NCBI GenBank assembly: GCA_028714235.1
Contig: JAQTMQ010000002.1
Coordinates: 8,154 to 72,153 of the forward strand
DNA length: 64,000 bases
Reading direction: 5' to 3'
From: Candidatus Iainarchaeum sp.
GTDB lineage: Archaea > Micrarchaeota > Micrarchaeia > Burarchaeales > Fermentimicrarchaeaceae
In this document: one piece after another, positions 3,926 to 62,246 of the stretch
How positions within the stretch are numbered: position 1 is the first letter of the stretch
How the letters are laid out: each line of letters starts with the position of its first letter
Made by a program: the position numbers and the translations under genes
Notes under the pieces: generated by a model
Told to the model about the DNA's origin: nothing
What the model saw: only the letters and a program-made list of their open reading frames with translations
Databases searched by the model: none

Positions 3926-5041
3926 TTGCAGGCAAATAGCTTTGCGCGGGCAGCCGCCCGCGCAAGGTTCAGGGGTGGGTTGTTGCTGTTTACGCCAGGT
4001 CCCGTTGATTTGACGAAGGAAATCGGCGCGGCGCAGGAAAAAAGGATGATTTCCCACCGGGGAAGCGAGTACCACGAGCTCCACTCCCGGGTCGTGGAAA
4101 ACGCGCGCCGGCTGATGGACTGCGACGACGCCTTCATAATAACCGGCAGCGGCAGCGCGGGAATAGAGGCCTGCGTCGCGAGCAGCGTGAGGGAAGGCGA
4201 AAAGGCGCTCGTCTGCCACAACGGGGTTTTCGGGGAGCGCCTGCTTGCGACGTGCCTCCTCCACGGCGCCGCGGCGTCGGGGGAAAAGCTCGGCTACGGG
4301 CTCGGCTTCTCGCTTGAGCGGGCGAAGGCGGCAATCGACGCCGCGAAGCCGTCGTTTTTCGGAATCGTCCTCAACGAGACGAGCACGGCGGTGTGCAACG
4401 ACGTCAGGGACGCCTGCCTTTACGCGAAGAAAAGCGGCGCGCTCGTTTTCGTTGACGGCGTGAGCGGCGTGGGCGGGCACGAGTTCTCCATGCGGCTTTC
4501 CGGAGTGGACCTGTGCGCGGTCGGCTCGCAGAAATGCATCGGCGCGCCCCCCGGGCTCGCGCTCGTCGGGGCGAGCGGCGGCGCAATCGCGCACATGAAA
4601 ACGGTCAAGCCGCGGACGCGGTACCTGGACCTGAACCGGTTCGCGGAATTCAGCGCGAAGAGCGAGACGCCCTTCACCCCCGCGATATCCCTCATCTACG
4701 CGCTCGACGAGGCGCTGGCCGGGGTTTTCAGGGAGGGGCTTGCGGCGAGAATCGGGCGGCACAGGAAGGCGGGCGAGTTCGCGCGCGCCAGGCTTTCGCA
4801 GGCGGGCTTCGCGCTTCTCGCCGAAAAGGGCTTCGAGTCGAACACCCTGACCGCGTTCAGGGTCTCCTCGCCGGAGGAGGAGAAGGGAATCAGGGACGCG
4901 CTCAAGGCGAGGGGCTTCATTGTTTCCGGCGGCATGGGGGAATTGAAGGGGAAGGTGGTGCGCATCGGCCACATGGCCAACTTTTCGCAGGAAAAGCTCG
5001 CCGAGTGCGTCGAGGCCGCAGTCGCTTGGAAAAAGCGTTAG
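3926..5041 (+). CDS. class-V (AGXT-family) aminotransferase, serine-pyruvate/phosphoserine aminotransferase-like
   Basis: It has the LLLFTPGPVDL start motif and a PLP-fold core (FIITGSGSAGIEA...). A lysine-containing region lies near SQKCIGAPPG. The start codon is uncertain. Confidence 0.75.
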   Translation: MQANSFARAAARARFRGGLLLFTPGPVDLTKEIGAAQEKRMISHRGSEYHELHSRVVENARRLMDCDDAFIITGSGSAGIEACVASSVREGEKALVCHNGVFGERLLATCLLHGAAASGEKLGYGLGFSLERAKAAIDAAKPSFFGIVLNETSTAVCNDVRDACLYAKKSGALVFVDGVSGVGGHEFSMRLSGVDLCAVGSQKCIGAPPGLALVGASGGAIAHMKTVKPRTRYLDLNRFAEFSAKSETPFTPAISLIYALDEALAGVFREGLAARIGRHRKAGEFARARLSQAGFALLAEKGFESNTLTAFRVSSPEEEKGIRDALKARGFIVSGGMGELKGKVVRIGHMANFSQEKLAECVEAAVAWKKR

Positions 5042-58784: not shown

Positions 58785-60596
58785 TTAAAGCTTCGTCATC
58801 GCCCAGAGGGCGGCGGCGGTCGCGCCCACGAGGACGAGGGGCGCGATGACGCGCACGACCGCGACGATGGAATTGACGGTGCCGAGGAGTTCGGAGGACT
58901 GCGCGACCCCGAAGACCTTCACGTCCTCCACGAGGAGGAGCGCGCCCCCGGCCTCGACCTCGCCCAGGTCGGAAAGCGCCTTTTTGGCGGCCTCGACCGC
59001 GCGCGACGTTATCTCCTTCTTGTCCGTGCCCTTCCCGCCGAGCGGGTTCAGGACGCCGCTCACCTTGTTCACGCTGTGCGTGTCCGTGGAAAGGATTTCG
59101 CATTCGTCAATCCCGAGCGCGCAGACGGCGTCGATGAGCTCGCGCCTGAACGCGGGCACCGCGCCGTTCGCGTCAAACAGGACGTAGGCGAATTTTTTCC
59201 CGTCGCAGGCGAAAACGGCGGCGCACATTCCCGCCCCGCCGACCGCGCCCTTTGACTTCAGGCCTTTCATGGCGTCGAACGCGAAGCCGGCCTTCAGGGG
59301 CTTTTCCGCCTTCCCCTGCGAGAGCGCGTCCGCGACCGCCTCCATGTATTCGAAGGCGATGGGGTTTCCGGACTCCACCTTGCTTATCTCGCCCGTTTCC
59401 GCGTTGTGCGCGTCAACCACCAGCGCCTCGCCCGCGCCTTTCGCGAGCGCGTAGTTGCGGATGGCGAGGCCGACCGAGAAATCCACGTCCTCGGTGGTCC
59501 TCGGCGCGCGCGTGAGGGGCGCGAACATGATTCCGTTGACCATCGCCGAAACGGTTTTCGCGGCCCCGTTCCTTCCTACCGCGAGCCATCCCCTCGCCTT
59601 GGCGTACCTCATCTCGCCCAGCTGCCTGAACAGCCGCGAATCGAATTTTTCGAGTTCGCCCGCGGAGGCGGGGTTGAAGTCGTGGGTCGCGCAGCCGTGG
59701 AAGACGAAGGCGTCCGCGCCCGTCCTCCTCTTCACCTCTTCCGAGATGAGGCGGGGGAACTCGCTTCCCCCGAGCGTGCCGAACGGCCCGTAGTGCACGT
59801 GGGGAATGACGAAGACCGCCTTCAGCCTGCCTTCGGACCTGAACGCGAGGACGCCGAGGTGGGTGCTCACGCTTTCGGCGACTTCCTCGAACATGGCCTC
59901 AAGCTTTGGCGACGCCTCGAACCATTGTGCGAGGAAAAGGCTTGCCGCGTCGGTCATGGAGACGCCGAAATTCCTTTTCATGGGCGCGTTGACGAGCCAG
60001 AACACCGCGTAGATTGCGGCGAGGAAGATGAACGACGCGAAGTAGAGCCGGGTGAGGACGCTGATTGACTCCGGGGAGCCGAGCGACTTGTCGGTCAGCA
60101 GGAACATGACGTTCAGGGTGGGCGTGATGAGGGCGAAGAGGTACGACGTGTACTTCAGGTTGAACACGATTCTCGCGACGATGAACCAGAGCGCGAACAC
60201 GAACGCGTTGCCGAGCAGGAGGAGGTTGAAGCTGTTCTGCGGGCTGACCCCGGCGAGCTGGAGCGCGCCGCTGTAATGCAGGAAGTAGAATGCGCCGTAG
60301 AGCGCGGCGGACATGAGGCCCAGGAACATCATCTGCTTGTACCGGATTTTCCGCTTGAGGCCGATGCATGCGACCGCGCCGAGCAGCGCGGGGACGGCGA
60401 TTAGGAACACGGCGCGGATGGCGTCGTAGGCCGCGTCCGCGAGGGGCGCGCCCCACGCCATCGCGGCCAGTCCCGTGATTATGCCGATGATGAAGGAGAA
60501 GGCGATTATCGCGAGGAATATTATTCTTGAGGGCGGAAGGCTTCTTCCGAGGAAGCGGGTGAGCCCCACCGCCTTTTCCGCCGAATCAGTGGACAA
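58785..60596 (-). CDS. DUF2070-like polytopic membrane protein with large C-terminal soluble domain
   Basis: ~7 N-terminal TM helices, then a soluble domain (VIPHVHYGPFGTLGGSEFP...) and a C-terminal TM helix. The start is uncertain (TTG 60596 chosen). The ORF as listed extends to 61109 through non-protein-like sequence. Confidence 0.5.
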   Translation of the reverse strand: MSTDSAEKAVGLTRFLGRSLPPSRIIFLAIIAFSFIIGIITGLAAMAWGAPLADAAYDAIRAVFLIAVPALLGAVACIGLKRKIRYKQMMFLGLMSAALYGAFYFLHYSGALQLAGVSPQNSFNLLLLGNAFVFALWFIVARIVFNLKYTSYLFALITPTLNVMFLLTDKSLGSPESISVLTRLYFASFIFLAAIYAVFWLVNAPMKRNFGVSMTDAASLFLAQWFEASPKLEAMFEEVAESVSTHLGVLAFRSEGRLKAVFVIPHVHYGPFGTLGGSEFPRLISEEVKRRTGADAFVFHGCATHDFNPASAGELEKFDSRLFRQLGEMRYAKARGWLAVGRNGAAKTVSAMVNGIMFAPLTRAPRTTEDVDFSVGLAIRNYALAKGAGEALVVDAHNAETGEISKVESGNPIAFEYMEAVADALSQGKAEKPLKAGFAFDAMKGLKSKGAVGGAGMCAAVFACDGKKFAYVLFDANGAVPAFRRELIDAVCALGIDECEILSTDTHSVNKVSGVLNPLGGKGTDKKEITSRAVEAAKKALSDLGEVEAGGALLLVEDVKVFGVAQSSELLGTVNSIVAVVRVIAPLVLVGATAAALWAMTKL

Positions 60597-60975
60597 GTTG
60601 CGACACCAGGTTACGGCCTGCCCGCGAAGCCTTTCCTTGCGGCCGGGTCCGTTTGCGCTTCCCTTTTCGCGTGCCTGCGCGCCCTGGAGAACGCGTTGTG
60701 CCGGATTGCGCGCTTGAGGGTGTACACGTTTTCCACGAACTCGTTCGCCACCTCCCTGAACGGGGCGCGCCTTTTCGAGGCTATCTTCATCAGCTCCAGC
60801 GTGATGAACCGCATCTCCGCATTGACCTGGGCCAGTTCGTCCTCGTCCACTTCCCGCACCGCGAAAACTTTTGCCGTGAAGCCATTTAAACCTAATCCGC
60901 TTCCGCCGCCCTGCGCGCGCTTTAAATATGGTTTCCCCAAAATCTTCCGTCAATTTTTTTCCGGGAGGCAGTCGC

Positions 60976-61197
60976 ATGGTTGAACTCAACCCCATCGAGC
61001 AGGCGGTTCTCAGGGCGCTCGGGGACCTCGGCGCGACCGCGGAAGACAAGCCGAAGACCGCGGACGACGTCACGCGGAAGGCGAACCGCCCCAAGGGGCA
61101 GGTGAACAACGCGCTCGTCGGCCTCGTCCAGAAGGGCGTCGTGGGCAGGCGCGTGAGGGAGAAGGCTTCCGGCTATTACGTCAAGGCCAGGCAGTGA
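60976..61197 (+). CDS. small winged-helix DNA-binding protein
   Basis: MVELNPIEQAVLRALGDLGATAEDKPKTADDVTRKANRPKGQVNNALVGLVQKGVVGRRV is wHTH-like. Confidence 0.45.
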   Translation: MVELNPIEQAVLRALGDLGATAEDKPKTADDVTRKANRPKGQVNNALVGLVQKGVVGRRVREKASGYYVKARQ

Positions 61198-62246
61198 AGG
61201 TTTTTTGGATGTACGGCAGGGTTGCGGTCGCTGGCACGTTTGACGCGCTCCATTGCGGGCACGCTGACCTCTTCGACGCGGCTTTCCGCCTGGGGAGGCG
61301 CGTGGTGGTCGGCGTCACGAGCGACGGCTTCGCGCGCAGGCTGCGCAGCGGCAAGGTCAAGCCGTACGCGGAACGCGTTTCCGCGGTCAGGCGGTTTCTC
61401 GGCAAGGCGCGGCTTGCCCGCGCGGAATTCCTGAGGCTTTGCGACCCCTACGGGCCGGCCTTGGGGAACGGCGCGGGGATAGAGGCGCTCGTGGTCTCCA
61501 CGGAAACGTTTCCGCGCGCGCGCGAAATCAACGAAATCCGGAGGAAGCGGGGCCTTGCGCCGCTCGCGGTCGAGGTCGTCCCCCTGGTCTACGCGGAAGA
61601 CCTCAAGAAGATAGCGAGCCGCCGAGTTTCGGCGGGCAAGACGGACGCGCGGGGCTCGCTTTTGAAGCCGGTCACGGTCGCGGTGGGGTCGCGGAACCCG
61701 TCAAAGCTCGAGGGCGTGAGGCTCGCGTGCAGGCGCATCTTCCCGGAGTCGAGGGTGGTCGGCGTCGCCGCGGACTCCAGGGTTTCAGTCCAGCCGTTTG
61801 GGAACGAGACGATTCACGGCGCCGTGAACCGGGCGATTGCGGCGCGCAGGAAGTCGGGCGCGGACTACGGGGCGGGCCTCGAGAGCGGGCTTTTCGAGCT
61901 TTACGGGCGGCATTTCGACTTCCAGTGGTGCGCGGTCTTCGACGGCGAGAACGTGACGCTCGGGTGCAGCATGGGCTTCGAGGTCCCGAGCGGCGCGGTG
62001 CGGCTCATAAGGCGCGGAAAGATGGACTTGGGCGAGGCGTTCGGGGAGCTGACCGGAATCCGGGAAATCGGGAGGTTCGGGGGCGCGCTCGGCTACCTTA
62101 GCCGCGGGATTGCGGAGCGCAGGGAGATGAGCGAGCAGGCGTTCGTTTGCGCGATGGTTCCGCGCCTGAACAGGCTCAATTACGGGAAAACCCGCGTCGG
62201 GCGGAAGGGTTTAAGGCGGCCGGTTCCGGGAAAGGCTTTTAAATGA
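61194..62246 (+). CDS. fusion of archaeal-type phosphopantetheine adenylyltransferase (cytidylyltransferase fold) with a DUF84/YjjX-like non-canonical NTPase domain
   Basis: The N-terminal half has VAGTFDALHCGH (HxGH nucleotidyltransferase). The C-terminal half has VTVAVGSRNPSKLEGVRLA, a start motif of inosine/xanthosine triphosphatase-like proteins. Confidence 0.6.
   Translation: MKVFWMYGRVAVAGTFDALHCGHADLFDAAFRLGRRVVVGVTSDGFARRLRSGKVKPYAERVSAVRRFLGKARLARAEFLRLCDPYGPALGNGAGIEALVVSTETFPRAREINEIRRKRGLAPLAVEVVPLVYAEDLKKIASRRVSAGKTDARGSLLKPVTVAVGSRNPSKLEGVRLACRRIFPESRVVGVAADSRVSVQPFGNETIHGAVNRAIAARRKSGADYGAGLESGLFELYGRHFDFQWCAVFDGENVTLGCSMGFEVPSGAVRLIRRGKMDLGEAFGELTGIREIGRFGGALGYLSRGIAERREMSEQAFVCAMVPRLNRLNYGKTRVGRKGLRRPVPGKAFK

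Follow-up and report, generated by a model that had tools for sequence, protein, structure and literature searches.

Archaeal pantetheine-phosphate adenylyltransferase (PPAT) adenylylates 4'-phosphopantetheine. Known archaeal members of the family, such as PAB0944 of P. abyssi, TK2128 of T. kodakarensis and the A. fulgidus protein of PDB entry 3do8, are standalone proteins of about 150 amino acids. Genetics show that one of them, TK2128, is needed for CoA synthesis (PMC6650551). The archaeal dephospho-CoA kinase (DPCK) depends on GTP; in some archaea it occurs as a fusion with PPAT, which was used in its discovery (PMC6650551). These PPAT-DPCK fusions (arCOG04076/DUF359; in eukaryotes, CoA synthase) join PPAT to a second nucleotide-handling domain, and the partner performs the next step of the pathway.

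A different kind of partner is the subject of this study. YjjX is described as an ITPase/XTPase belonging to the Maf/ITPase fold group, and hydrolysis of ITP and XTP is known only for the E. coli member of its family (PMC3899018, PMC4319933). Unlike DPCK, this family, DUF84, is not known to catalyse any reaction of the CoA pathway. The fusion of PPAT with DUF84 is nevertheless already known as an architecture, under the curated name NF002250/PRK01170, and the exact protein described below is already deposited (P0001). In the literature searched, we found no paper discussing either this fusion or a PPAT-DUF84 gene pair, and no enzyme assay of any member of the fused family.

The window, by which we mean the whole 64-kb stretch of DNA analysed here, contains such a fusion, and Table 1 gives the coordinates of the gene, its domains and its neighbours. 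The original prediction had described it as a single frame, and this is borne out: the ORF is uninterrupted over 350 codons and contains both of the peptides that had been quoted, GTFDALHCGH at residues 14-23 (HCGH at nt 61251-61262) and VTVAVGSRNPSKLEG at residues 160-174 (SRNPSK at nt 61689-61706). The frame stands, but its start should be moved, since ATG 61209 is probably the biological start codon rather than GTG 61194: the N-termini of relatives coincide with this ATG, the deposited protein is 345 amino acids long and 100% identical, and a Shine-Dalgarno-like GAAGGT lies at 61197-61202, 7-12 nt upstream. The GTG, for its part, overlaps with the stop of the preceding gene, in the sequence GTGA. 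The database label of the deposited protein is "inosine/xanthosine triphosphatase" only, which omits the PPAT half. The annotation of this gene and of its DPANN relatives should include PPAT, because the omission affects how the capacity for CoA salvage and synthesis is scored in reduced-genome archaea.

Table 1. The fusion gene, its domains and motifs, and its neighbours in the window
Feature	Position	Strand	Basis and remarks
Small TrmB-like winged-helix gene, upstream of the fusion	60928..61197	+	PF01978, E 1e-6
Longest ORF of the fusion gene	61194..62246	+	350 codons + stop, GTG start, internal stops 0 (ORF list)
Probable true CDS	61209..62246	+	ATG start, 345 aa, MYGRVAVAG...
PPAT domain, archaeal/eukaryotic type, nucleotidyltransferase fold, residues ~9-158	61218..61667	+	NF001985, 3do8, Foldseek
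HxGH nucleotide-binding signature, H20-C-G-H23	61251..61262	+	Column conservation
Second nucleotidyltransferase signature	61611..61628	+	IASRRV here, family consensus ISSTRI
DUF84/YjjX-type non-canonical purine NTP phosphatase domain, residues ~160-331	61671..62186	+	PF01931, TIGR00258, 1zno/1u5w, Foldseek
S-x-N-P-x-K motif (S166-K171), opening the NTPase domain	61689..61706	+	Aligns with SQNPAK of VC0702
Basic tail at the C-terminus (residues 333-350), predicted disorder	62190..62243	+	pLDDT <50 (AF2); alignment without conservation there
Conserved downstream gene, 224 aa	62318..62992	+	Synteny

The C-termini of the fusion protein and of P0002, its closest relative, are strongly basic and not conserved (RVGRKGLRRPVPGKAFK and ...RRERGGRKRKKGL, respectively).

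Taken as a whole, the protein aligns end-to-end with NF002250, the model named 'bifunctional pantetheine-phosphate adenylyltransferase/NTP phosphatase' (residues 10-327 against positions 3-317 of 322, E 3.7e-71), with a score of 240.2 bits, below the curated cut-off of 489. It shares with the Thermoplasmatales-type fusions of this model the PPAT domain at the N-terminal end, the DUF84 domain at the C-terminal end and the length class of about 320-350 amino acids; it differs from them in belonging to DPANN and in sharing only 31-35% identity with the Thermoplasmatales clusters. Other fusions also score below the cut-off: P0126 and P0137, both labelled Thermoplasmatales (240.6 and 363.8 bits), P0030, from a clade near the Methanomassiliicoccaceae cluster P0022 (273.1 bits), and the Ca. 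Fermentimicrarchaeum fusion of the micrarchaeote locus L010 (302.1 bits). Since even fusions labelled Thermoplasmatales fall below 489 bits, the model is a narrow one. Judged by its sequence, the window protein has the NF002250 architecture and lies outside the narrow curated subfamily.

An AlphaFold2 model computed from 30 fused relatives has a pLDDT of 89.8 and a pTM of 0.84, disorder being confined to the basic tail (residues 333-350); among its Foldseek matches, there is no solved structure that spans both domains. From the retention of HxGH, SxNPxK and the other family columns, we infer that both domains would be catalytically competent and both activities present.

It is thus likely that the protein is a bifunctional enzyme, combining dephospho-CoA synthesis with ITP/XTP hydrolysis, that was fused from a head-to-tail operon pair. 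The N-terminal domain would catalyse the CoaD-equivalent step, 4'-phosphopantetheine + ATP -> dephospho-CoA + PPi, and the C-terminal domain, of YjjX type, would take the terminal phosphate off the deaminated purine NTPs, ITP and XTP. The fusion itself would have required the loss of a stop codon and of a short spacer between head-to-tail operon genes, PPAT then DUF84, in an ancestral arrangement that would still be seen in Methanobacteriaceae. We infer that its main effect is to secure co-expression; more speculatively, the NTPase might shield PPAT, which uses ATP, or the archaeal DPCK, which uses GTP, from ITP and XTP. Several observations count against a bifunctional enzyme: the second nucleotidyltransferase signature reads IASRRV and not ISSTRI, the NF002250 score is 240 bits against 489, other CoA-pathway genes are absent from the flanks examined, a DPCK-like (DUF359) ORF is not found in the 64-kb window, and a DUF84 gene stands beside adenylosuccinate synthetase in locus L059.

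How widely the two domains are linked bears directly on this proposal. Both precomputed Pfam domains are present in 33 of 40 database homologues obtained by a word-indexed search, and the named members of that set are mostly Micrarchaeota. An exhaustive search with HMMER through 1.84 billion cluster representatives (50% identity) gave 5233 matches; domain HMMs identify both domains in 86 of the best 149 of these. Besides Micrarchaeota, the fused clusters bear the names Thermoplasmatales/Thermoplasmataceae (A-plasma EQB71360.1 and others) and Methanomassiliicoccaceae. A scan of species-representative genomes, whose search patterns are biased to close relatives and whose list of taxa is not exhaustive, returned a single ORF at all nine Micrarchaeota loci. 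One of these nine is on the complete chromosome CP058998 of Ca. Fermentimicrarchaeum limneticum. The linker aligns without gaps among relatives. The fusion is thus conserved in its lineage, in 9/9 Micrarchaeota genomes and in dozens of independent assemblies; the architecture is curated and widespread, and the window gene is a further member.

The same scan revealed the two domains as separate adjacent genes, PPAT then DUF84 on the same strand, in 33 of its 50 loci (among L015-L056). This split pair is a new detail: nearly all of the 33 loci carry the label Methanobacterium or Methanobacteriaceae. The distance between the domains is 0-170 nt, unless they overlap; in three further loci it is about 2 kb. 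In Methanobacterium sp. ACI-7 (L033), for example, PPAT occupies positions 3983-4441 and DUF84 positions 4479-5006, and each product passes its own NCBIfam cut-off, with 191 bits against NF001985 and 280 bits against NF003039. The Methanobacteriaceae coaD-DUF84 pair has the order and strand of the two halves of the window gene, with about 40% identity for PPAT and 41-44% for DUF84; it differs in producing two polypeptides, the stop codon and a spacer of 0-170 nt being retained. Since the gene order is the same and the genes are adjacent in Methanobacteriaceae, the fusion most likely arose by the joining of an old PPAT-DUF84 gene pair, for which one small indel could suffice.

The standalone DUF84 proteins nearest to the C-terminal domain of the window protein complete this picture. 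For three of the four (L057, L058 and L060), the gene directly follows one that is PPAT-like. The fourth (L059, 1969-3528) directly follows adenylosuccinate synthetase, so the PPAT-DUF84 linkage is not universal. This purine-metabolism context fits an ITP/XTP-cleaning role of DUF84. In L057, a micrarchaeote contig, PPAT (1558-1998) and DUF84 (1983-2510) are two ORFs that overlap by 16 nt, in the same surroundings as the fused locus L001: DUF357/TRM upstream, tRNA-synt_1b and MJ0538 downstream. Since this split form is nested among fused relatives, it may reflect either a split that occurred secondarily in the fused clade or a frameshift. Neighbour-joining trees computed for each domain (139 sequences for the N-terminal one) are star-like, with fused and unfused sequences interspersed and bootstrap support absent.

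Genes that lie so close together, or that overlap, might also have been joined to no effect. It is possible, if somewhat unlikely, that the fusion is functionally neutral, unrelated housekeeping neighbours having been joined by chance while CoA synthesis and NTP cleaning share no biochemical link. The small indel that would be enough is consistent with this, as is L059, which ties DUF84 to purine synthesis instead. So is the genomic context: no other CoA-pathway gene was found within the examined flanks of the fusion, in the window or in relatives, and the 64-kb window yielded no DUF359/DPCK-like ORF, no second PPAT and no second DUF84. However, the pair or the fusion persists in Methanobacteriaceae, Thermoplasmatales, Methanomassiliicoccaceae and Micrarchaeota, which is more than would be expected of a random neighbour, and DPCK, the other known fusion partner of PPAT, does belong to the pathway.

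The activity assigned to the C-terminal domain in the bifunctional enzyme is supported by several comparisons. The NTPase_I-T/DUF84 model PF01931 matches residues 165-325 over its entire length (positions 1-162 of 162) with E 1e-46 and 159 bits, for a cut-off of 25; the NCBIfam equivalog TIGR00258, 'inosine/xanthosine triphosphatase', scores 143.3 bits, for a cut-off of 117.1. The best solved relatives in a PDB sequence search with residues 162-332 are VC0702 and YjjX (1zno, 1u5w), and Foldseek superposes the modelled domain on the same two proteins, with TM scores of 0.78-0.87 overall and of 0.83-0.87 for 1u5w, 1u14 and 1zwy_A. Its SxNPxK, QP, GAxNR and GxE(S/A)G blocks align with VC0702. In the 30 fused relatives, the SxNPxK and G-x-E-x-G blocks are invariant or nearly so, and the invariant columns include G165, N168, K171, P201, G209, A210, R213, G228, E230, G232, D242 and D250. 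The resemblance to E. coli YjjX and V. cholerae VC0702 thus extends to the full-length Pfam match, the equivalog score, the SxNPxK and GxE(S/A)G motifs and a TM score of about 0.85; yet those proteins stand alone, while the window domain shares about 30% identity with them and is joined covalently to PPAT.

This tie raises the question of whether the domain still acts as a general ITP/XTPase. It may have been recruited to a CoA-related or regulatory role, such as hydrolysing a mis-made inosine or xanthosine analogue of dephospho-CoA, sensing nucleotides or controlling the flux through PPAT, which we consider unlikely. The conservation of the PPAT linkage over archaeal phyla would agree with such a role; so would the pTM of 0.84, which suggests a defined arrangement of the two domains, and the scores of the Thermoplasmatales fusions, whose C-terminal domains reach 65-67 bits against the ITP/XTPase equivalog cut-off of 117. 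By contrast, the window protein and other DPANN and Methanomassiliicoccaceae fusions pass that cut-off, and the same proteins keep all family-invariant residues.

A related and equally doubtful conjecture is that archaeal DUF84 is a dedicated partner of PPAT and not a free-standing house-cleaner, so that the pair or fusion would point to a step of quality control or regulation in CoA synthesis that has gone unrecognised. Such a partner could prevent or remove inosine and xanthosine analogues of dephospho-CoA, or could remove the ITP and XTP that compete at the GTP-dependent archaeal DPCK. The conjecture would cover the pair in Methanobacteriaceae and the fusion in Thermoplasmatales, Methanomassiliicoccaceae, Micrarchaeota and related DPANN. 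The linkage, as pair or as fusion, recurs over distant archaeal groups, and a clue of the same kind led to the archaeal DPCK; the recurrence therefore provides a cheap and testable hypothesis on the role of DUF84 in archaea. The original prediction had suggested that the fusion may couple CoA biosynthesis to nucleotide sanitation, and the gene pair conserved in Methanobacteriaceae lends this conjecture a little indirect support.

For the N-terminal half of the bifunctional enzyme, the Pfam model CTP_transf_like matches residues 13-142 (E 7e-13, 49 bits, cut-off 21); together with NTPase_I-T, both Pfam domains are found far beyond chance. More specific is NF001985 (PRK00777; COG1019-like), 'pantetheine-phosphate adenylyltransferase', which aligns residues 8-158 with positions 5-154 of 157 and scores 146.5 bits, above its cut-off of 104. 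The best solved relative is the PPAT of A. fulgidus, 3do8 (PDB sequence search, E 1.7e-22, residues 9-156), on which the modelled domain superposes with TM scores of 0.81-0.86 (Foldseek). The original prediction had named an archaeal-type PPAT followed by a DUF84/YjjX-like domain of ITPase/XTPase type, and both assignments agree with these comparisons: NF001985 and TIGR00258 are passed, and the nearest structures are 3do8 on one side and YjjX and VC0702 on the other.

The motifs of the PPAT domain are well preserved, with one deviation. H20 and H23 are invariant in the 30 fused relatives, and G22 nearly so; G40, R61, N113 and R116 are invariant as well. In a larger sample, both histidines are present in 97 of 100 fused N-terminal domains and in 39 of 39 unfused ones, and the motif columns are equally conserved in the two groups. 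The deviation lies in the C-terminal motif of ISxTxxR type, here IASRRV: S142 and R144 are kept, the first serine is replaced by alanine and the threonine by arginine. These variants belong to a minority of relatives, with alanine in 7 and arginine in 17 of the 100 fused sequences. With respect to PAB0944, TK2128 and 3do8, the domain is thus alike in HxGH, in fold and in its NF001985 score, and unlike in being fused and in reading IASRR for ISSTR.

The deviating motif leaves some room for another cytidylyltransferase-like enzyme, such as a FAD synthetase, an NMN adenylyltransferase or a sugar- or glycerol-phosphate nucleotidyltransferase. The Pfam match is to a generic superfamily model only, and the Thermococcales CoaD equivalog scores 75 bits, below its cut-off of 290. 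This identity is nonetheless quite improbable, given that the NF001985 cut-off is passed, that none of the rfaE, TagD, RibF and NadR-type models scores above 29 bits against the domain, and that the best solved relative is deposited as a PPAT.

Finally, the refuting case foreseen by the original prediction, two genes joined artificially by a frameshift or a missed stop in sequencing or assembly, would find an echo in the overlapping ORFs of L057 and in the two genes of Methanobacteriaceae, but it is hardly credible and we reject it, since the single ORF recurs across independent assemblies: 33 of 40 homologues, which come from independent samples, have it, as do 9/9 species genomes of Micrarchaeota (the complete chromosome CP058998 among them) and 86 representative clusters, and the linker aligns gap-free.

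The searches also brought up some other architectures. Two proteins of the homologue search, P0039 and P0040, are fusions of PPAT with DUF359, the archaeal dephospho-CoA kinase family, and two others, P0037 and P0038, carry after PPAT an extra C-terminal region of about 110 amino acids that has no Pfam match; PPAT thus has several alternative fusion partners. On the side of DUF84, a stop-to-stop ORF of L052 (3-1790) contains a segment of an E1-E2 ATPase (residues 243-424) followed by a DUF84 domain (residues 455-588) that lacks the first 29 or so profile positions. Rather than a genuine fusion, this ORF probably represents a chimera of the assembly or what remains of a gene.

We now turn to the surroundings of the fusion gene. 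In five related loci, which come from four assemblies (L001/L002, L007, L008 and L010), the 224-aa gene lies directly 3' of the fusion; its product has no match in Pfam, NCBIfam, PDB-sequence or fold searches. Housekeeping genes of archaeal type, for SerRS, aRF1, an S-layer protein and a Cdc48-like AAA ATPase, are found elsewhere in the window. Many of the large ORFs sampled in the window have no Pfam match, and these are probably wrong-strand ORFs in DNA of 63% GC.

On the upstream side, a winged-helix homologue with 64% identity is found directly before the fusion in L001/L002 only, the closest relative. Because the stop codon of the winged-helix gene overlaps GTG 61194, this gene is probably co-transcribed with the fusion, and it may be a local regulator. 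Further upstream, on the opposite strand and diverging, are genes for a DUF2070 membrane protein and for GT4 glycosyltransferases. The longest DUF2070 ORF (58785-61109, minus strand) starts about 180 codons ahead of its Pfam match; its true start is probably well downstream, which would leave a divergent intergenic region ahead of the winged-helix gene.
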